A stretch of DNA of 64,000 bases from a bacterium (GCA_965200245.1 CBDATS010000015.1:373209-437208); one strand, 5' to 3'. Positions 18,061 to 28,895 are shown, counted from the first letter of the stretch. The notes: generated from the letters alone by a model not told the origin. Translations and numbers: made by a program.

Positions 18061-19374
18061 CTAGAAGCTGTATTGCAGTCCGATTTGCAGGCGCGACGCG
18101 TCACCCTCTCTGCCGTCGTTCGTTTCGCGCCAGCCATGCATGTATTCAAAGCCTGCCCGCATCTTGGGTGCAAGCGACCACCAGACGTTGGCGTGCACCG
18201 ATTCGAGCGACTGGCTGAGTTCCGGGAACACTGCCTTTGCCGGGTCTTCGAAGTCGTTCTCCACCCAGCCATAATAGAAACCCGAACTCACGGAACTGTT
18301 CCAGTTTTGCGTGAGACCGATGAAACCGCCCATCGAATCCAGTGCTTCCAATGCACCCCCCGCTCCCAGGATAGCGGCTGCTGAAGCCCCGAGCATGGAT
18401 TTATCCAACCCGCCCTGACCGACATTGAGCGTCCCCCACAGTCGGGTGTCCTTGCCCAAACCGACGTTCGCGCCGAGGTGAAATGCGGAGATGGTCAGAC
18501 TCTCTTCAACTGCGCCATCTTCGTAGATAACCTGTCCGATGAGGCCCGACGCATTAATGGCACCCCAAGCCGTCGTCAGGCGCAGGGCCGCCGTCAGATT
18601 CGGCATTCGCTCCTGTGAGGATGCTGTCCCGCCAGCCTTCAGAATAGTCGGAGAATCGGGATCTTCGAGTGCGACCTGCATCGTGAGGTTCTTTCCCATC
18701 GCCTGGGAGTAGCGAACCTGTGGCCGACGCACGGCAACTATGCCTACCGGCCCTTCGAAATCCACAGTATCGGCATAGGTGTTCTCATCCATGAATGTGG
18801 TCCAGTTCTGTCCCGCAAGTACCGGACCCAGAGACGCGTACGCATGGCGCAGTCGCAAGGCGTTACGACTGCCATAGAAATCGGTTTCGATTCTGGTCTT
18901 GAGTTGGCCGACACCCGTAGGCGTCAGGCTGTCGAAACGAAGGCGCGTCTGCCTTGCATGCAGGGAAGTTTTCTGCTGTCGGGTTCCACCATCGAGAGCA
19001 ATCGCGCTGGGCTCGCCTCCCCAGTCATAGATGGAGAAGGCATCACCCAGATCCTGGTCGATATCGTAGATCGCATCAAGCTTCACGTAGCCACTGAAAG
19101 AGAGCGACGTTTTGCTCCCCGGCATCTTCCAGGAACCCGGAAAATCACCGGTAGCCACTGCCTTTTTCCGGGTGGCTTCCGTCGCGGCCTTCATATCGGC
19201 CTTCATTTTCTTCTCGCGGGCCTCGAGAGCTTCGAGCCGCTTCATGAGCGCCTTTATCTGCGCCTTGAGATCGTCTATCTCTCCTCCTGCGACTGGCACG
19301 ACGAACATCGCCAAAGTCATAACGAACCCGATTATTCCTATTCCAAACCGATTTCTCCAGCTGATCTTCATCAT
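18061..19374 (-). CDS. DcaP-family trimeric outer-membrane porin
   Basis: Signal peptide, N-terminal coiled coil, SGYVKLDAIYD, ARQTRL, IETDFYG, RLRHAY, LAGQ.WTTFMD, terminal QYSF. Confidence 0.87.
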   Translation of the reverse strand: MMKISWRNRFGIGIIGFVMTLAMFVVPVAGGEIDDLKAQIKALMKRLEALEAREKKMKADMKAATEATRKKAVATGDFPGSWKMPGSKTSLSFSGYVKLDAIYDIDQDLGDAFSIYDWGGEPSAIALDGGTRQQKTSLHARQTRLRFDSLTPTGVGQLKTRIETDFYGSRNALRLRHAYASLGPVLAGQNWTTFMDENTYADTVDFEGPVGIVAVRRPQVRYSQAMGKNLTMQVALEDPDSPTILKAGGTASSQERMPNLTAALRLTTAWGAINASGLIGQVIYEDGAVEESLTISAFHLGANVGLGKDTRLWGTLNVGQGGLDKSMLGASAAAILGAGGALEALDSMGGFIGLTQNWNSSVSSGFYYGWVENDFEDPAKAVFPELSQSLESVHANVWWSLAPKMRAGFEYMHGWRETNDGREGDASRLQIGLQYSF

Positions 19375-19541
19375 CCCTCTCCTCGCGTTAGCCTGGATGG
19401 ACACTATTTCCAATGAGGATGCAGGAAACATAGTCACGAATGGGACAATATGATTCCTGCACCGTTCCCGACGCATATTTTCTCGATTCCACTCTGGATT
19501 CAGTCTGACAGCAACCCGGTTCGACAAAACCTGCAGGTGGC

Positions 19542-20408
19542 TCAGTATCCGTCCAGCACTTTCAGGATGGTTCGCCGAACCAGAATGGGCGTCACTTGCC
19601 GTCTGTAATTGTCGCTAGCGCGGATATCGGTCAAGGGTTCGATATCTCCGAGCGTATCCGCCAACACGGTGTCGATGTTCTCCTGGTTGATCTCTTTGCC
19701 CTCAAGACCTTCTTCCGCCGCCTTGAGGCGTCTGAAAACAGCCTCCACACCGCCCAAGCCGATTCTCACCTCCTTGGCAGTCTTGCCATCCTCTTCGGTG
19801 AGCACCGCGGTGGAAACGGATACGCAGGGCTTGTCTTCCTTCGAACGCGTGGTGAAGCGCGTGCACGCCGTACGGAAACCATCGGGCAGCGGATCAACCT
19901 CTATGGAACAGAGCAATTCATCCTCATCCAGGGCGCACTCGTAATACCCCGTCCAGAACTCCGTCGCCGGAATCACGCGCGCGGATCCATCTGCCTTTTT
20001 GGTATTCATACGCGCTTCCAGGACAAGAAACGCACCGGGAGGATCGGACGCCGGTTCCGCAAAACACAGGTTGCCGCCTACAGTCCCCTGGCTTCGAATT
20101 CGAATCGTGGCCACGTTGTGAAAAATTTCCGCGAGGAGCGGGAAGCGTTCCTGGACGATCGGGGATAGTTCGATCTTGCGGTGCACCGTCCTCGCCCCGA
20201 TGCGGATGCCGCCGGTTTCGGTTCCTTCAATGAAGTCCAGATCGCCTGCACCTGCGATGTCAATCAATACCTCGGGTTCGTACACCCCCGATTTCATGAG
20301 AATCGAGAGAGCCACGCCGCCAGCAAAAACTTTCCCGTCATCGCCATGCTCCTTCAGGGCGGCGAGCGTTTCCTCCGCGCTGTTCGCGGGTAGGTGTCGA
20401 AAAACCAT
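19542..20408 (-). CDS. Xanthine dehydrogenase/CoxM-family FAD-binding subunit
   Basis: FAGG, IRIGA, IRSQGTVGGN, PASD, DIRASDNYR. Confidence 0.92.
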   Translation of the reverse strand: MVFRHLPANSAEETLAALKEHGDDGKVFAGGVALSILMKSGVYEPEVLIDIAGAGDLDFIEGTETGGIRIGARTVHRKIELSPIVQERFPLLAEIFHNVATIRIRSQGTVGGNLCFAEPASDPPGAFLVLEARMNTKKADGSARVIPATEFWTGYYECALDEDELLCSIEVDPLPDGFRTACTRFTTRSKEDKPCVSVSTAVLTEEDGKTAKEVRIGLGGVEAVFRRLKAAEEGLEGKEINQENIDTVLADTLGDIEPLTDIRASDNYRRQVTPILVRRTILKVLDGY

Positions 20409-20427
20409 TTTCTCTCCCCTTTCCTCG

Positions 20428-22713
20428 TTATTCGCCGTTTTTCTCGTTCAACGCGGCCAGAACCTTTTCCGGCGTTATCGGCAGTGACGTAATACGCACA
20501 CCCACGGCGTCATAGATCGCGTTGCCGATTGCCGCCGAGGTGCCCAGTTGCGCCATCTCGCCCAACCCTTTCGCTCCATAAGGCCCCGAGGGGTTTTCCG
20601 TCTCGATCAACACGGCTTCGAGTTCGGGCAAATCCTGGGTCGTGGGCAGTTTGTAGTCGAGCCAGTTCGCGTTCACCGGCTGGCCGTCTTCGCACTCGAA
20701 ATCTTCCATCATGGCGTAGCCCACGCCCATCAGTGCGCCGCCGTCCAACTGCCCCTGCGCGCCGGCGGGGTTCACGATTGTTCCGCAGTCATTCGTGCTG
20801 ATGACCCGCAAGACCTCGAACGCGCCGGTTTCAGTATCCACTTCCACTTCCGCCACCTTGGCGCCGTAAGCATATGCGGCGGACCAGTTTCCATAGCCCG
20901 TTACGGGGTCCGGGGTTTCGCTCGGGGAGTCGTACGAAGACGCCGTGTAGACGGCCTCGCTACCCTCTTTTTCATATAACTTCATGTAAGCATCGCTGTG
21001 GGTCACCTGCCGTTCGGGAGAACTGGTGACGAAAATCTTGCCCTCACGCGCGTCGAGATCCTTCGGGTCACATTCAAGCAGTTCCGACGCGCCCTTGAAC
21101 AGCATGTTCCTCGCCTGTACCGAAGCCAGGCGAGTGGCCTCGCCGTCGATGGTCGTCGTGCGGCTTCCGCGCACGCCCCATCCGTAGGGGTTCACTGCGG
21201 TATCGCCGTTGATGATCCGCACATCCTCTACACGTATGCCTATCGCTTCGGCGCAAATCTGTGCGAGCGTGGTGTCCGAGCCGTTGCCCATCTCGATGGT
21301 GCCCGAAAGCAACTGCACGGTGCCGTCCTTGTTCATCTTGATGAACGCGCCCGCCGTTTCCGGACCCATCGCTCGTGCGCCGGTAAAATGAACCGCCGCG
21401 GCAACTCCGTAGCCACGCCTTTTCCCGTTGCTGCCGGGTTGTTTCTCACGCCAGGGCACGCGTTTGACCGCTTCTTCCACACACTCGGAAACGCCGCAGC
21501 TTGTAATTTTGGCCCCGATGATGGTGGTATCGCCCCTTTTGACGAAGTTCTTGATGCGAAACTCCGCCGGATCCATGCCGATTTCCTCGGCGTGCTTGTC
21601 CATGGCGAGTTCCGACCCGAACGCATAGCCTGCATTGCCGATTCCGCGCATCGCGCCGCCGGGTGGCACGTTCGTGCAGACAACATCGGCGTGATGGCGA
21701 TAGGCCTTGTAGTTATAGATGCTCCCCCCCATGTGCGCCGTAATGGAGCCGACTGCCGGGCTGTAATCGGAATAGCCGCCGTTTTCCACCACCATCTGCG
21801 TGTCTCGCGCAAGCAGCATGCCGTCCCTGTCAGTGGCGATGCGCCAGACATGGCACTGCTTCGTCCGGTGCGTGCCGAGAAGGAATTCCTCTTCGCGCGT
21901 GTAATAGAACTTCACGGGAAGGTCCAGCTTTTTCGCCGCGATGATGGAGAGGAAATCGATGTTGAACTTGCTCGTCGCCTTTCCGCCGAAACCGCCACCC
22001 ACGTAATTCGTGATCACGCGAATCTGGGCTTCGGGAATCTTGAGAAGTTTCGAGAAATACTGGCTCGACAGACTCGGGCATTGCGAGGAATTGTAGACCG
22101 TTACGTCGCCCTTCTGCGACCACTCGGCGATAGATACGTGCGCCTCCAGGGAACCGTGCATCTGGCGGGAGGAGGAAGTAGCCAGTTCGCTCACATGATG
22201 GGCTTCGTCGAACATGCGGTCCACATCGCCGAATTCCATGTGCTTTGTGAATGCGATGTTGTTCGGGTACCTGTCATGAATAACGGGGGCACCCTCTTCC
22301 ATCGCCTCTCTCGGATCGAAAACGGCGGGAAGTTCCTCGTAGTCGACATCGATCAAACCGAGTGCTTCTACCGCGATGTCTTCTGAAATCGCCACGACGG
22401 CCGCCACCGAATCCCCCACGTGGCGAACCTTGTCAGAGGCAAGAGGACGCTGGTCGTAGCAAACTGGCACGACACCCCACTCCACTCCCTCGGGAATGTC
22501 CCTAGCCGTCAAGACAAGCTTGACGCCGGGGAGCTTCTCGGCGCGGCTGGTGTCGATGTTCTTGATCCGTGCATGTGGCAGGGGACTTCCGAGCAGCCTC
22601 CCGTGAAGCATTTTGGGCAACTGCAGATCCAAGGTGAACATGGCCCTGCCTGTCACCTTTTCCGGTCCGTCGACGCGAGGTACGCTTTTCCCGATGTATG
22701 AGAGTTCAGCCAT
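20428..22713 (-). CDS. Xanthine oxidase-family molybdopterin-binding large subunit
   Basis: IGKSVPRVDG.EKVTG.A, GGGFGGK, GAMRG.G, GSR.T, GQ..GG..MG.G.A, DYKLPT..D.P, GAKGLGE. Confidence 0.93.
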   Translation of the reverse strand: MAELSYIGKSVPRVDGPEKVTGRAMFTLDLQLPKMLHGRLLGSPLPHARIKNIDTSRAEKLPGVKLVLTARDIPEGVEWGVVPVCYDQRPLASDKVRHVGDSVAAVVAISEDIAVEALGLIDVDYEELPAVFDPREAMEEGAPVIHDRYPNNIAFTKHMEFGDVDRMFDEAHHVSELATSSSRQMHGSLEAHVSIAEWSQKGDVTVYNSSQCPSLSSQYFSKLLKIPEAQIRVITNYVGGGFGGKATSKFNIDFLSIIAAKKLDLPVKFYYTREEEFLLGTHRTKQCHVWRIATDRDGMLLARDTQMVVENGGYSDYSPAVGSITAHMGGSIYNYKAYRHHADVVCTNVPPGGAMRGIGNAGYAFGSELAMDKHAEEIGMDPAEFRIKNFVKRGDTTIIGAKITSCGVSECVEEAVKRVPWREKQPGSNGKRRGYGVAAAVHFTGARAMGPETAGAFIKMNKDGTVQLLSGTIEMGNGSDTTLAQICAEAIGIRVEDVRIINGDTAVNPYGWGVRGSRTTTIDGEATRLASVQARNMLFKGASELLECDPKDLDAREGKIFVTSSPERQVTHSDAYMKLYEKEGSEAVYTASSYDSPSETPDPVTGYGNWSAAYAYGAKVAEVEVDTETGAFEVLRVISTNDCGTIVNPAGAQGQLDGGALMGVGYAMMEDFECEDGQPVNANWLDYKLPTTQDLPELEAVLIETENPSGPYGAKGLGEMAQLGTSAAIGNAIYDAVGVRITSLPITPEKVLAALNEKNGE

Positions 22714-23114
22714 CACAACCTCCACTCGTTTGCGGCACCAAACCGCATGCCGTTTTTTTAGTTCTTATTCTCTTGATAGAATTTGATTTTCGGATGTATA
22801 CGTTCTTTCTTACCCACCATAATATCCATCGCACTAGCCCGGGACCCGGCAGAGCGCGATGGCGTTTCATTTCGGTTCGATACGCAAATTATAGCAACTA
22901 GACGGGCAAAACAAAAGGGAATTATATATCAGGGACTACAGGCGACCTGAGCATCGGTGAAACATGGGCAAAAGCCAAAAACACCGATCATGACCCGGTG
23001 CTTTTTCTACGGCATCCCGGAAGGAGGCAATCTCGAGTCCTGCGTCTTTGCGCTGACATTCCGTCGAATACAATACGGGAGCAAGCCGCAGGCATCATCG
23101 GAAATAACACGGGA

Positions 23115-23578: not shown

Positions 23579-24325
23579 ATGCCCATTCGTTTTGATTTTC
23601 AGGGTCGAAAGGTCATCCTCACGGGCGCGGCGGGAGCGATGGGAAAACGCATTTTGCAGGGCTATATCGAGGCTGGCGCCAAGGTATTCGCAACGGACAG
23701 GGGAGGCCCCGCCTTCGACGCGATAGAGGGCCCCTCCGATCAACTCTTCAAGCTGCCCTGCGATCTGGCTGACGTGGAAGCCATCCGCACTACCATGCGT
23801 GCGGCACTCGAGTGGCTTGGCGGGTGCGATGTGCTCGCGAACGTGGCCGGCTACATGCCGATTCGCCCGCCGCTCGAACTCGAAGAGAAAGACTGGAACG
23901 TCGTTCTGAACGTGAACCTGCTCGCGCCCTATTTCTGCATTCAGGAGACCATCGAGGCGCTCAAGGCTTCGGGCACGGGGCGCATCATCAGTTTCGCGTC
24001 CATCGCGGGCAAAATGGGTGGCATCGGACCGAACCTCACATACTCCGCCGCCAAAGCGGGCCTGCTCGCTATGACGTTCAACCTGGCGCGAGAACTCGCC
24101 AAGACGGGCGTGACGATCAACACCATCCAGCCCGGCCCGGCCGATACGGGCCTTCATTTCCAGTCCCCACCCGATATGCTCGTGAACGCAGAGAAGGCAC
24201 ATCCCATGGGCCAACTCACTACGCCAGAGGATGTGTGGCACACCGTCTTGTTCCTCACGAGCGAGGAGACCGCGCACATCAACGGAGAGGCCGTGGACGT
24301 GAACGGCGGCTTCTGGACGGACTAG
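23579..24325 (+). CDS. Short-chain dehydrogenase/reductase
   Basis: TGAAGAMG, NVAG, YSAAK, NTIQPG, VNGG. Confidence 0.92.
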   Translation: MPIRFDFQGRKVILTGAAGAMGKRILQGYIEAGAKVFATDRGGPAFDAIEGPSDQLFKLPCDLADVEAIRTTMRAALEWLGGCDVLANVAGYMPIRPPLELEEKDWNVVLNVNLLAPYFCIQETIEALKASGTGRIISFASIAGKMGGIGPNLTYSAAKAGLLAMTFNLARELAKTGVTINTIQPGPADTGLHFQSPPDMLVNAEKAHPMGQLTTPEDVWHTVLFLTSEETAHINGEAVDVNGGFWTD

Positions 24326-24340
24326 CGCGAGGAAATCACC

Positions 24341-25177
24341 ATGACGAACGGCAACCCGAAAGGTTATGCGAATCCCGACTTGCTCTGGTCGCCTGCACAG
24401 CTCAAGGAGCGCATGGGCGACTCGAACCTGAGGATTATCGACACGCGCCCGGGCGAGCGCTACACGATGGGTCACATCCCCGGCGCGCGGCACTTCGACG
24501 TCTACGGCGTGAACAGCGACGATTCGGACGAGGCACCCTTGAGAAATTTCTTCTCCATGTGGGCGTTCCTGCTGGGTAACCGGGGTGTGTCGTTCGGGAA
24601 CACCATCGTTTTCTACGATGATTTCGTCGGCAACACGAGCGTGCGTGGTTTCTGGGTGCTCGAGCTTTTCGGCCATAAGGACGTGCATGTGCTCGACGGC
24701 GGGTATCGAGGGTGGGAACGTGCGGGGTACGGGACGACGCGCGACGCCGAGGTACCCCGCGCCGCTTCTTTCCAGATGGCGTTCGAGCCGGATCGACTCG
24801 CCACGCGAGAGGACGTGCTGGCGGCTATCGAGGACGACAACCACATGCTGCTCGATACCCGCTCAGCAGAGGAATGGGAGGGGCGGAGCATGCGCGCGAA
24901 GCGGAGCGGCATCATCCCCGGTGCGGTATGGCAGGAATGGCTCCAGCATCTGACGCCCGAGGGCGAAATGAAGCCTGCCGACGAGCTTCGCGCACAGTTC
25001 GAGGCCATCGGGATTACGCCAGAAAAAGAGGTGACCGCCTACTGACAGACGGGCTACCGTGCGGCGCACGGTTACTTCGCCCTGCGGCTTCTCGATTACC
25101 CGAAAGTAAGGAACTACATGAGTTCCTGGAAGGAATGGGGCAACCGCGAAGATACGCCCATCGTGCAAGCGCAATAA
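24341..25177 (+). CDS. Two-domain rhodanese/sulfurtransferase (SseA-type), probable selenoprotein (UGA at 25043-25045), 278 aa
   Basis: GHIPGA, VLDGG...W, LLD.RS..E..G, G.IPGA. The frame continues through TGA as [11 protein letters not shown]...V.NY.SSW.EW, the canonical rhodanese C-terminus, to TAA at 25175-25177. Confidence 0.9.
25051..25082 (+). promoter_or_regulatory. Putative bacterial SECIS element
   Basis: ACCGTGC-GGC-GCACGGT perfect stem (25056-25072), starting at the 11th nt after UGA, G-first apical loop; lower pairing GGGC/GCCC. Confidence 0.72.
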
Positions 25178-25341
25178 CGCACATGCCATGCGGCTCGGGG
25201 AGGCGGAGCGCACTTGCCTTAGGGATGCTCTTCCCAAACAATACGCCGAATTGATATGGAACTTTGTAATCAACATTCACGGCCACTACATCTTCTGGAT
25301 GGGGGCACTTTCATTCATTCTCGCATTCCTGGAGGTTTACA

Positions 25342-26358
25342 ATGAAGAGTCATTTCACCCGTATTACCCTGGCCGTCACGTTCGCCCTGGCGCTCTCGGC
25401 GGCCAGCATCGCCTCGGCGGCACCCACACTCAAACTGGGGGCTGCCAGCAACAACGGCGGCATGGTCGTCTTCGTCGGCGTCGACAAGGGCTTTTTTGCA
25501 AAAAACGGGCTGGACGCGAAGGTCGTCGTGCGCAACACGGGCGCGCAGCTTACCAAGTCCCTGAAAGCCGGTCAGATCGACTTCGCTCCCGCGGCGTTTA
25601 CCAACCTTCCCGCGGCACTTGAGCGCGGCATCAAGGTGCGCGGCGTCGTGGGTTACGTTGGCGGTTCCTACAAGAAATCCACAACGGATGAGATGGTGGG
25701 CATCGCCGCACGCCCCGGCACCGGCATCAAGGGCATCAAGGACCTGAAGGACAAGAAAATCGGCGCGACCTTCGGCTCCACCGGCGACCTATACCTCCGT
25801 ACCCTCCTCGAGAGAAACGGCATCGGTGTGGGAGGCGTGCGCCGCATCAACGTGCGTCCGCCGAGCCTTGTCTCGTTGTTCGACTCTGGCGGCGTGGACG
25901 CCATGGTCGCCTGGGAACCCTACCTCACCCGCATGACCGACAAGGTGAAGGGTTCTGCCATCGTGTCGCGCGGCGGCGACTACGTGTGCTTCTGCGCGGG
26001 TATGCACGGCGTTCCCGAACGCGTCTACAAGGACAAGAAGGCGACCCAGGCGTTCGTGAACGGCATGTCCGAGGCGGCCGCCTACGTGCGTGACCCGAAG
26101 AATCTGGATGAAATCTCGAAAATCGGTGCTCGCTACGTCCGCGGCATGGACGCCGCCCTCATCAAGCGCACCTTCAAGTGGTGGACCTATGACCCGCGTC
26201 TGGGCGAGAACACGCTCAAGGCCTTCAATTTCTCGGTGAAACAGCTCATTGCGCAAAAGAAGATGAAGCGTCCCTACGACCCCAAGAAATACTTCGACTT
26301 CCAGTTCATCAACCGGACCATGAAGGAACATCCCGAGTGGTTCAAGGACCTCAACTAG
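25342..26358 (+). CDS. ABC transporter substrate-binding protein, NitT/TauT/SsuA family
   Basis: Signal peptide, KGFFAKNGLD, L.AG.ID, DLK.KKIG..FGST, G.VDA..AWEP. Confidence 0.9.
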   Translation: MKSHFTRITLAVTFALALSAASIASAAPTLKLGAASNNGGMVVFVGVDKGFFAKNGLDAKVVVRNTGAQLTKSLKAGQIDFAPAAFTNLPAALERGIKVRGVVGYVGGSYKKSTTDEMVGIAARPGTGIKGIKDLKDKKIGATFGSTGDLYLRTLLERNGIGVGGVRRINVRPPSLVSLFDSGGVDAMVAWEPYLTRMTDKVKGSAIVSRGGDYVCFCAGMHGVPERVYKDKKATQAFVNGMSEAAAYVRDPKNLDEISKIGARYVRGMDAALIKRTFKWWTYDPRLGENTLKAFNFSVKQLIAQKKMKRPYDPKKYFDFQFINRTMKEHPEWFKDLN

Positions 26359-26438: not shown

Positions 26439-27227
26439 ATGCCGGCGAAACTCGTAGTCGAGAGACTATCGCATCACTATCCGGACGAATATACGGGGGA
26501 GGATGTCCACGCACTCGATCAGGTGAGCCTCTCGGTGGAGGACGGCGAGTTTTCCGCCGTCGTAGGTCCCAGCGGCTGCGGAAAGACCACGTTGCTCAAC
26601 ATCCTCGCCGGGCTTCTCCCTCATGGCGAGGGCAGCGTAAAGGTGGACGGCAAGGAGGTGCAGGGACCGGGGCCGGACCGTGGAGTCGTGTTTCAGGAGC
26701 ACGCGATTCTTCCCTGGCGCACCGTAGCGAGAAACATCGGCCACGGCCTGGAGATCCAGGGCGTCGCCAAAAACGAACGGGAACAAAGGGTACAGGAGTT
26801 TGTCGATCTGGTCGGCCTCTCGGGTTTTGAGGACCGCTACCCGCACGAACTCTCCGGCGGCATGAAACAGCGCTGCGCTCTCGCACGGACACTGTGCGCA
26901 AATCCGGTGGTGATGCTGATGGACGAACCCTTCGCCGCCGTGGACGCGCAGACGAGAATCACCCTGCAGGAAGAGTTGAACCGTATCGCCATCGCAACGA
27001 AAAAGACGATTCTCTTCATTACGCACAACGTGGATGAGGCAGCGTTCCTGGGCGACAGGTGCTTCATATTCTCGCGTCGTCCGGGGAAGCTCAAGGCCAC
27101 CGTCAAAATCGACGTTCCGCGAGAAAAACGCATCTGGAAGGACCTGCTCTCCGAGAGGGCCTACACCGACCCGCGCGATGAAATTCTCCGCCTCGTGCGC
27201 GAGGAGGTGTTCGATGACGAGGAGTAA
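26439..27227 (+). CDS. ABC transporter ATP-binding protein, NitT/TauT family
   Basis: GPSGCGKTT, VFQE..ILPW, LSGGMKQR, LMDEPF, ITHNVDEA. Confidence 0.95.
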   Translation: MPAKLVVERLSHHYPDEYTGEDVHALDQVSLSVEDGEFSAVVGPSGCGKTTLLNILAGLLPHGEGSVKVDGKEVQGPGPDRGVVFQEHAILPWRTVARNIGHGLEIQGVAKNEREQRVQEFVDLVGLSGFEDRYPHELSGGMKQRCALARTLCANPVVMLMDEPFAAVDAQTRITLQEELNRIAIATKKTILFITHNVDEAAFLGDRCFIFSRRPGKLKATVKIDVPREKRIWKDLLSERAYTDPRDEILRLVREEVFDDEE

Positions 27228-28038
27228 CGGGACGGCATCGAGAGCGAAACCGCAGTCGAGACAGTGGAGAAGGTTCGTCAGAGGGGGCGGGGTCGAACTC
27301 GTGCTCCTCATCCTGTTCGTTCTGCTGTTGTGGAGCTTTATCTCGCAGAGCATCCCCAACCCGAGCCGCTACCTGCCCTCACCCGTCTCGGTCGTTCTCT
27401 CCTCCTACGACGTCATCTGGAAGGGTTTGTTGCCCAACTTCATCGGGCAGACACTGTGGCGGCTCGTCATCGGCAGCGCCATCGGCCTGTTGCTCGGTAT
27501 CCCCTTCGGCATCGCCTTGGGGCTGAACCGCACCGTATCCGACATGTTCTACCCCATCATGAACTTCTTTCAATCCATATCGGGTATCGCGATTCTTCCC
27601 ATCATTGTCGTCTGGTGGGGCAACAGCGAGAAGACAGTGTTCGCCGTCATCCTTTACACATGTTTTTTCCCCATCGCCTTTAATGTGTTAACGGGAGTGC
27701 GCAGCACTCCCATGATACTGGTGAACGCCCTGCGAACGTTGGGCGCATCGCGCATTCGAATCGTGAAGGACGTACTGATTCCGAGTGCCATGCCCCATAT
27801 TGCTACCGGGGCACGGCTTGGCATCGGCTACGCCTGGCGGGCCGTCATCGCCGGGGAGATGCTCGCCGGCAGACGCGGTCTCGGGTGGATGATCTTCACT
27901 TCCCAGGACGCGGACCTCACCGCGCAGGTTATCCTTGGGATGGTGATGATCGGCGTTATCTGGATCATGATCGACCGCTTCGCCCTTCGTCCCATCGAGG
28001 CGGACACCATCCAAAGGTGGGGGCTCGTGCAAAGATGA
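27214..28038 (+). CDS. ABC transporter permease, NitT/TauT family
   Basis: GAGGAGG before ATG 27214. LPSP, EAA-like loop LRTLGAS, GEML....GLG. Confidence 0.92.
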   Translation: MTRSNGTASRAKPQSRQWRRFVRGGGVELVLLILFVLLLWSFISQSIPNPSRYLPSPVSVVLSSYDVIWKGLLPNFIGQTLWRLVIGSAIGLLLGIPFGIALGLNRTVSDMFYPIMNFFQSISGIAILPIIVVWWGNSEKTVFAVILYTCFFPIAFNVLTGVRSTPMILVNALRTLGASRIRIVKDVLIPSAMPHIATGARLGIGYAWRAVIAGEMLAGRRGLGWMIFTSQDADLTAQVILGMVMIGVIWIMIDRFALRPIEADTIQRWGLVQR

Positions 28039-28895
28039 GCGTACTCCAGGCGGCGTCCATCAGCCTCCAGAAACGATTCGGCCGCCAAAGGCTGCGGAAG
28101 ATTCTGCTGGGGAGCATCCCATTCGTCGTTCTGCTCGCCTTGTGGCAGATGAACACCGAAATGAAATGGCTCCCGCCGGTGTACATTCCGCCCATCGCTT
28201 CCATCTGGGAGGCGATCTACACGCTTTCAGAAGGCTGTGCGGGTGCGGGCGCTGTGCTCTCGATGCAGTACGAGTGCCTGTTCACGAACCATATACTGTC
28301 GAGCCTAGGCCGCGTGGGCCTTAGCCTCGTCATCGGTATCCCTTCGGGCATCGCCCTGGGCGTGCTGGCGGGCATGAGCCGTCGCTTCGCCCACGCGCTC
28401 GAGCCCATTGGCGTGTTCGCCAACGCCATATCAGGCATCGCCTGGGTGCCTCTCGCCATCGTGTGGTTCGGAACCGGCTGGCTCACGACGCTCTTCATTC
28501 TGCTGAACACCGTGTTCTGGCTCATTTTCTTCAACACGCTCCTGGGCGTGCGGGGAGTCCCGAGGGTATATGAAAACTCCGTCATGACAATGGGCGGCGG
28601 GCGATGGGCCATCATCACCCAGGTCTACATCCCAGGCGCACTGCCCAGCATCGTCACGGGCGTGCGCATGAGCATGGGCTTCGGCTGGCGCGCACTCATC
28701 GCTGCGGAGATGATAGGCGGCGACAGCGGCCTCGGATTCATGATCTTTGTCTCCGCCGCCGAATACAAGATTGAGGAAGTGTTCCTGGGCGTGCTCGTCA
28801 TCGCCATCATATGGATGATTACGGACAGGCTGCTTTTGATCCCCCTGGAGAAATGGACCATCCAGAGGTGGGGCATGGTCTGGAGGCCATCGTAA
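28035..28895 (+). CDS. ABC transporter permease, NitT/TauT family
   Basis: ATGA overlap with the previous gene. IAWVPL, PGALPSI.TG.R, WRALIAAEM..G.SGLG. Confidence 0.92.
   Translation: MSVLQAASISLQKRFGRQRLRKILLGSIPFVVLLALWQMNTEMKWLPPVYIPPIASIWEAIYTLSEGCAGAGAVLSMQYECLFTNHILSSLGRVGLSLVIGIPSGIALGVLAGMSRRFAHALEPIGVFANAISGIAWVPLAIVWFGTGWLTTLFILLNTVFWLIFFNTLLGVRGVPRVYENSVMTMGGGRWAIITQVYIPGALPSIVTGVRMSMGFGWRALIAAEMIGGDSGLGFMIFVSAAEYKIEEVFLGVLVIAIIWMITDRLLLIPLEKWTIQRWGMVWRPS

Follow-up and report, generated by a model that had tools for sequence, protein, structure and literature searches.

The interval 24341-25177 of the analysed DNA very probably encodes a 278-residue, RhdA-like selenocysteine (Sec) rhodanese, in which the UGA codon at 25043-25045 is predicted from its sequence and genomic context to be decoded as Sec. 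The source DNA is a stretch of 64,000 nt (the window; GCA_965200245.1 CBDATS010000015.1:373209-437208), within which positions are counted, on contig C15 of a metagenome-assembled genome (MAG) of 3.68 Mb in 15 contigs with an estimated completeness of 95.8% and an estimated contamination of 8.1%. The reading frame opens with ATG at 24341, runs to the in-frame TGA, continues for 43 further codons and closes with TAA at 25175-25177; the ORF as conventionally called, 24341-25045, closes on the TGA. A first-pass annotation of the window had described this TGA, the 43-codon extension and a perfect stem with a G-first loop starting at the 11th nt past the TGA, and all of these are present exactly as described. 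The Sec decoding that it proposed is supported by the Sec machinery of the genome, by the presence of TGA in every orthologue fetched, by selection on the region past the TGA and by constraint at the hairpin site. Each of the three conditions that it had named as refuting this reading turned out in favour of Sec. The features discussed below are listed in Table 1.

Table 1 Coordinates of the predicted Sec-rhodanese gene, its parts, its neighbours and other predicted selenoprotein genes of the genome (positions are those of the window unless a contig, C4, C5 or C8, is named)
Feature	Location	Strand	Remarks
Full selenoprotein CDS (predicted)	24341..25177	+	278 codons + TAA; Sec at residue 235
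Shine-Dalgarno-like GAGGA	24329..24333	+	7 nt before ATG; read from sequence
N-terminal rhodanese domain	24389..24721 (residues ~17-127)	+	Pfam stretch 17-127; non-catalytic repeat
C-terminal catalytic rhodanese domain	24806..25150 (residues ~156-270)	+	Pfam, 1E0C alignment, AF2 model
UGA codon, predicted Sec (U235), motif Y-U-Q-T-G-Y-R	25043..25045	+	Aligned to catalytic Cys; 28/28 orthologues
SECIS-like hairpin	25056..25072	+	7-bp stem, arms ACCGUGC (25056-25062) and GCACGGU (25066-25072), perfect pairing; GGC triloop (25063-25065); 10-nt spacer after UGA
SDR-family oxidoreductase (FabG-like)	23579..24325	+	Pfam adh_short_C2, 154 bits
Substrate-binding protein, SsuA/TauA-type ABC transporter	25342..26358	+	Pfam NMT1
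ABC transporter ATPase; permeases in ORFs	26439..27227; 27034..28038, 27885..28895		Pfam ABC_tran, BPD_transp_1
Xanthine dehydrogenase/CO dehydrogenase-family subunits	19542..20408 (FAD-binding); 20428..22725 (large molybdopterin)	-
Second two-domain rhodanese	C4:567007-567828	-	TGA C4:567127-567129 (L078 1621-1623)
UGSC-family paralogues	C4:1134017, C4:1247837, C4:1227229, C4:430674, C4:1365493, C5:157317, C8:272010

The read-through protein contains two Pfam Rhodanese (PF00581) stretches (E = 1.5e-34), in agreement with the two-domain sulfurtransferase initially proposed. In a phmmer search against the PDB the best matches were A. vinelandii RhdA (1E0C, E = 2e-41) and T. thermophilus rhodanese (1UAR, 5e-41), and in the alignment to 1E0C the TGA column coincides with the catalytic Cys of the RhdA loop CQTHHRS, confirming that the TGA sits exactly at the catalytic Cys position. 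This column is invariably Cys in the 49 of 49 Cys homologues aligned. In the N-terminal repeat the catalytic-Cys position is occupied by Asp (FYDDFVGNT aligned to VYDDEGGGW of RhdA), and the protein has two repeats, a six-residue catalytic loop in the C-terminal repeat and an inactive N-terminal repeat, as expected of a two-domain rhodanese. RhdA and 1UAR share the two-domain fold, the inactive Asp-containing repeat and the six-residue loop (beginning C-Q-T in RhdA), but unlike the query they are Cys enzymes, at 30-34% identity, and the RhdA loop C-Q-T-H-H-R-S differs from the query loop U-Q-T-G-Y-R-A. Two curated models place the protein outside their families: the SseA equivalog model NF008557 gave 136.4 bits against a cut-off of 250, making it related to SseA rather than an SseA equivalog, and NF041203 (rhodanese_LYCAU, "rhodanese-related (seleno)protein") gave 36 bits against a cut-off of 115. 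The latter family has the rhodanese fold and Sec/Cys alternation in common with the query but, unlike the two-domain query, has a CxU motif and a single domain spanning 126 positions.

An AF2 model built on the alignment with the 49 Cys homologues had a pLDDT of 94.9, and Foldseek comparison of the model gave TM scores of 0.88 to 1UAR and 0.84 to 1E0C. In the model a strand at residues 230-234, Tyr234 being the end of this core strand, is followed by the active-site loop (235-240), a helix (239-250), a further strand (256-259) and a last helix (263-268). The TGA splits the C-terminal rhodanese domain in standard gene calls, and a 234-residue product would, on this model, be without the active-site loop, helix, core strand and terminal helix, residues 235-270 being needed for the fold.

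Orthologues were searched for in 61 genomes (the genome itself and relatives) at E <= 1e-20, and a match was obtained in 48. The best orthologue contains exactly one TGA in 28 genomes, comprising 22 of the 23 genomes of the same genus and six from three other genera of the family; in the 23rd genome of the genus (G005) the orthologue is incomplete, its contig ending at residue 198. The TGA occupies the same codon in every one of the 28 orthologues fetched (75-100% identity, four genera). Both of the more distant orthologues inspected (G025 and G029; 66-68% identity) have TGC at this codon, and a further orthologue (G024, 66% identity) is without an internal stop. An in-frame UGA is therefore found opposite the Cys of homologues, with conserved flanks on both sides. 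One genome (G004) carries, besides its main copy, a second, split copy of the Sec-rhodanese gene with 93% identity (G004:C3:37089-37920); this bin is 9% contaminated, and the split copy is probably strain heterogeneity in the bin.

The genome was searched for the Sec machinery, as the first-pass annotation had suggested, and encodes tRNA-Sec, SelA, SelB and SelD. The tRNA-Sec reached 75.9 bits (gathering score 47), and ARAGORN assigned it the anticodon tca (UCA); selA (572.7 bits), selB (391.9 bits) and selD (338.6 bits) all scored above their curated cut-offs. SelB exceeded its cut-off in 47 of the 61 genomes, including 26 of the 28 TGA-bearing genomes and three genomes with Cys-form orthologues; it was not detected at the threshold applied in the remaining two TGA-bearing genomes, G017 (79% complete) and G034 (91%), which are fragmented MAGs.

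Other selenoprotein genes of the same genome were used as internal positive controls, and their common layout is a spacer of 10-12 nt, a GC-rich stem of 6-9 bp and a G-first triloop. The selD gene is itself Sec-containing, with an in-frame TGA in KAGG-U-GSKLGP followed by a hairpin with the stem GGGTCC, the loop GGA and the stem GGACCT. A GrdB-type selenoprotein B (G000:C5:578383; L083) matched TIGR01918 with 417.7 bits against a cut-off of 65.45; such a protein, belonging to glycine/sarcosine/betaine reductase, is unexpected for a presumed aerobic nitrite oxidiser. At least seven UGSC-family paralogues with the motif GD-U-GSCTSWS..HD were found, each with a hairpin of 7-9 bp, whose loop is a GTG or GTA triloop in six and TGTAT in the C8:272010 copy; the only paralogue checked against NF041046 (UGSC_fam), L081, passed it with 136.5 bits against a cut-off of 125. 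An OsmC-like Sec candidate (G000:C4:424833; L082) with the motif AGHAG-U-GLYT reached 60.8 bits, below the NCBIfam cut-off of 95.

A second two-domain rhodanese in the genome, 30% identical to the first, also has a TGA at the catalytic Cys position (LVLY-U-RLSHRAS), followed from the 11th nt by a hairpin with a 9-bp stem and a GTC loop. Eight related genomes gave single-TGA matches to a distant rhodanese resembling this second one (32-34% identity to the query). One genome thus appears to hold two independently converted Sec-rhodaneses. The UGSC paralogues point to a large selenoproteome, in line with BSepDB, which in the passage concerned tables MAGs labelled Nitrospinota, Nitrospinaceae or Nitrospinae, with 48-54 selenoprotein genes, under UBA8248 (PMC13326102).

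A relaxed genome-wide scan for TGA followed by a hairpin was used solely for choosing these positive controls and was rejected as a description of the selenoproteome, as many of its 190 candidates fell in CRISPR repeats or in frames that do not code. Palindromic units with the sequence TCCCCGCGTGTGTGGGGA, or a variant of it with GTGG, recur on G000 contigs C9 (~19.6-26.2 kb), C11 (~13.6-23.5 kb) and C13 (~17.4-19.9 kb) and look like CRISPR arrays; some identical flanking translations on C9 and C11 suggest a double assembly of one array or a duplication within the MAG.

The hairpin of the rhodanese gene lies directly 3′ of the UGA and has a small apical loop containing G. Of the 116,280 TGA trinucleotides on the two strands of the genome, only 10 have, after a spacer of 10-11 nt, a 7-bp stem of perfect Watson-Crick pairs closed by a triloop that begins with G. 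Folding of the region past the TGA, which the first-pass annotation had recommended, gave a divided result: the hairpin makes up the centroid fold of the 58-nt stretch past the TGA, but it is absent from the minimum free energy (MFE) structure, and the MFE is no better than that of shuffled sequences (z = 0.17). An Rfam scan of 24900-25300 with E up to 10 returned a spurious snoRNA match only and no SECIS family. A longer structure with a lower stem of GGGC (25051-25054) and GCCC (25079-25082) was rejected, the 3′ side of this stem falling in synonymously varying codons (such as GCC/GCT/GCA and CTG/CTC/TTA). The minimal SECIS element of E. coli has a spacing of 11 nt. Like the E. coli fdhF-type SECIS minihelix, the query hairpin is in the CDS shortly past the UGA and has a G in its small apical loop; unlike it, the query hairpin has a 7-bp stem and a 3-nt loop, no bulged U and no match in Rfam. 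The query hairpin is short, a minihelix of 17 nt. A guanosine in a small apical loop is the bacterial SECIS criterion as worded in the relevant passage of PMC1088965.

Comparison of the orthologues indicates that the nucleotides of the hairpin are constrained beyond the protein that they encode. Twenty-three of the 28 orthologues carry the 17-nt hairpin unchanged, and the remaining five each carry one mismatch, namely CGT to CGC in two (C-A in place of a U-A pair) and GGT to GGC in three (A-C in place of the basal A-U pair). Mean synonymous codon entropy is 0.16 at codons +1 to +9 after the TGA versus 0.77 gene-wide (184 conserved degenerate columns); the lowest eight 9-column entropy windows of the gene all overlap the TGA and hairpin, and none of 100,000 random draws of nine columns was as low. 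Directly past the hairpin, Tyr, Ala, Leu and Arg codons vary freely. The first-pass annotation had proposed a search of homologues for TGA/TGC alternation accompanied by covariation in the hairpin. The alternation was seen, with the hairpin missing in both TGC orthologues, which carry TCG (Ser) where the Sec forms have Ala241 and GCC (Ala) where they have Gly244; the covariation was not. In the 16 sequences counted, 96.4% of stem cells pair, none of the seven pairs changes on both sides, five never vary, and the four variant cells (of 112) each break a pair. The test is uninformative because the stem is invariant, and the alignment shows the nucleotides of the hairpin to be constrained without proving that they pair. 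Ser241 and Ala244 each occur in at least 90% of 50 aligned sequences (all of them Cys forms except the query). The Sec clade has Ala241 and Gly244 instead, and both codons form part of the stem; the clade has therefore given up two conserved residues at this site.

The alternative that best survives these data is that read-through of the UGA occurs but inserts wholly or mainly a residue other than Sec, either by tRNA-Sec mis-charged with Cys under selenium limitation or by a near-cognate tRNA inserting Trp or Cys, the conserved nucleotides then serving read-through or another RNA function. The hairpin is compatible with this, having neither covariation nor an Rfam SECIS match, and the case for Sec is one of sequence and model. 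The genome nevertheless contains complete Sec machinery and has this hairpin layout also after the Sec codons of genes in bona fide selenoprotein families. If Cys were the residue needed, its own codon would be the simpler route, and sister lineages that also encode SelB use one; Trp or Gly at the invariant catalytic Cys would inactivate the enzyme. We regard non-Sec read-through as unlikely, and Sec as the very probable residue at position 235.

Pairwise comparison of the 28 TGA-bearing orthologues, which align without indels across 265 codons, gave a pN/pS of 0.225 before the TGA; past it, the ratio was 0.168 across codons +1 to +40 and 0.167 when only +10 to +40 were taken. As judged from these ratios the 3′ tail is under protein-level purifying selection at least as strong as that upstream, because pN/pS past the TGA (0.167) is no higher than before it (0.225). 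These data bear on the reading in which the TGA is a genuine stop and the gene a decaying or truncated rhodanese with only a 234-residue product lacking the catalytic loop. Public gene calls do agree with such a stop: all 25 close relatives among the 120 proteins listed are 234-aa calls ending in ...TAY, and NCBI entries such as MCY3824267.1 and MYA98022.1 (Nitrospinota) are 234-aa proteins named "sulfurtransferase" or "rhodanese-like domain-containing protein". That standard gene callers would truncate the protein had been anticipated in the first-pass annotation. An open frame beyond the TGA, taken alone, is not unusual, since at least 40 open codons follow the stop in 40% of the TGA-ending long frames of this 57% GC genome. 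TGA is also the commonest stop of the genome, terminating 1,252 of 2,510 frames of at least 300 codons, on which ground a global reassignment of TGA was rejected. Bacterial Sec insertion is generally inefficient, and some truncated product is therefore to be expected in any case. Against a genuine stop are its occurrence at the same codon in 28 species, the low pN/pS and absence of indels in the tail, and the fact that the tail completes the fold, which a pseudogene would not retain across four genera. Termination as the sole fate of this codon is accordingly very unlikely, and translation through the UGA into a full-length rhodanese is the favoured reading.

That the codon is really TGA, a point that the first-pass annotation had left to be verified against reads, was borne out by contigs from four of four public runs of two studies (region 23900-25700), all with TGA and no alternative letter. 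Two of the four runs are metatranscriptomic libraries, with contigs spanning 24545-25361 and 24633-25084; contigs from RNA libraries do not establish that the locus is transcribed, and the window itself may derive from one of the DNA runs. A sequencing or assembly error or a MAG chimera concealing a TGC or TGT codon, for which the 8.1% estimated contamination of the MAG might speak, is hardly credible given TGA in 28 independently assembled genomes, in the contigs of all four runs and in seven metagenome contigs that contain the exact 33-nt string of TGA and hairpin.

The direction of change was examined in a tree of 150 rows inferred with IQ-TREE in quick mode under LG+G4. The rows comprised the 28 TGA loci, two TGC loci, 119 database proteins and, as the outgroup, a Cys paralogue from the same genome (48% identity); the query itself and one 209-aa fragment were left out. 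The 53 Sec rows (the 28 loci and 25 database calls of 234 aa) form one clade with an SH-aLRT of 100, placed ten nodes from the root among Cys forms. The tree has no bootstrap, several of the intervening nodes are weak (38-81) and the columns of the Sec site were kept in. Because the Sec rows form one clade nested among Cys forms and one Cys/Sec change is required, the tree favours one conversion of a Cys ancestor to the Sec form within Nitrospinaceae.

The SDR gene upstream is likely to be an operon partner of the Sec-rhodanese gene because its stop lies 15 nt ahead of the rhodanese start, and an SDR gene is immediately upstream in all 27 other TGA-bearing loci. NCBIfam FabG-type models applied to the SDR protein all scored under their cut-offs. 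Downstream of the rhodanese gene, the substrate-binding protein of the ABC transporter scored 106.7 bits with the NCBIfam SsuA_fam model, below its cut-off of 163.5, and only some of the orthologous loci have the transporter on their 3′ side within the available flanks. The Sec-rhodanese may play a role in organosulfur or sulfane-sulfur handling. Genes for a DcaP-like porin and a molybdopterin enzyme occupy 18061-22725 on the other strand (-), upstream of the SDR-rhodanese pair.

A Sec-containing rhodanese has been predicted before from metagenomic data. "Rhodanese-related sulfurtransferase" (COG2897) was among 15 new selenoprotein families reported from the Sargasso Sea in 2005, with three sequences, and its SECIS was drawn for AACY01016424, in the passages concerned (PMC1088965). 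The corresponding part of the Global Ocean Sampling (GOS) selenoproteome lists eight cd01449 sequences and one COG2897 sequence (PMC2398784). Reviews of 2022 and 2026 name rhodanese-related sulfurtransferase as a predicted selenoprotein with the motif UxxG in the passages on it (PMC9312934, PMC13188914), the later one as "form 4" (PMC13188914). As far as the accessible parts of these sources go, the present protein resembles the COG2897 SseA/cd01449 family in its two-domain SseA/TST-type architecture, Sec in place of the catalytic Cys, UxxG motif (here U-Q-T-G), marine origin and small post-UGA hairpin with a G-containing apical loop. The link to the representatives of that family (AACY01016424, MQG53192.1 and MCY3690685.1) is one of motif and architecture and not of sequence comparison, and the accessions of the present clade (MCY3824267.1, MYA98022.1) differ from them. 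In the passages available from PMC1088965, PMC2398784, PMC9312934 and PMC13188914, Nitrospinota is not linked to rhodanese-related sulfurtransferase, and the word "Nitrospin" is absent from the available text of the 2026 review (PMC13188914). Among the literature titles listed, none pointed to an experimentally characterised Sec-rhodanese or to a report of this Nitrospinaceae clade; the supplements of the selenoproteome papers and of BSepDB may list these genes. The Sec-rhodanese is a member of a family already predicted from ocean metagenomes, to which the present analysis adds a Nitrospinaceae clade with a single inferred switch.

In the mechanism that we propose, the GC-rich hairpin with its 7-bp stem and G-first triloop, 10 nt past the UGA, would act as a bacterial SECIS, bringing SelB-GTP-Sec-tRNA(Sec) to a ribosome paused at the UGA, with tRNA-Sec, SelA, SelB and SelD supplied by the organism's own genome. 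The selenolate, held in the six-residue cradle U-Q-T-G-Y-R, would take up a sulfane sulfur to form Sec-Se-S(H), by analogy with the Cys persulfide of rhodanese, and this putative intermediate would then hand the sulfur on to an acceptor. The Sec form would have originated once from a Cys ancestor in Nitrospinaceae, and it is accompanied by the upstream SDR gene.

Nitrospinaceae are nitrite oxidisers, both marine and sponge-associated. A broader interpretation, which we offer tentatively and hold to be possible rather than probable, joins a single, datable Cys-to-Sec switch in Nitrospinaceae, the sacrifice of Ser241 and Ala244 for a SECIS stem in the active-site helix, the second Sec-rhodanese (U-R-L-S-H-R) and the SDR and often sulfonate-type ABC transporter neighbours into a lineage-specific, selenium-boosted pathway for sulfane sulfur or organosulfur, as opposed to one more redox selenoprotein. 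If this is true, the gene would be a clean natural example of the birth of a SECIS inside a coding sequence. The general picture of bacterial selenoproteomes is unchanged by the present clade, which would show a SECIS embedded in an active-site helix at the price of two conserved residues. That a single bacterial family contains orthologues of both forms, Sec and Cys, at 66-72% identity provides a natural pair that would be a good system for studying the benefit of selenium to a sulfurtransferase. With the 234-aa records being without the active site, metabolic reconstructions of Nitrospinaceae would either overlook a working sulfurtransferase or include an inactive one.
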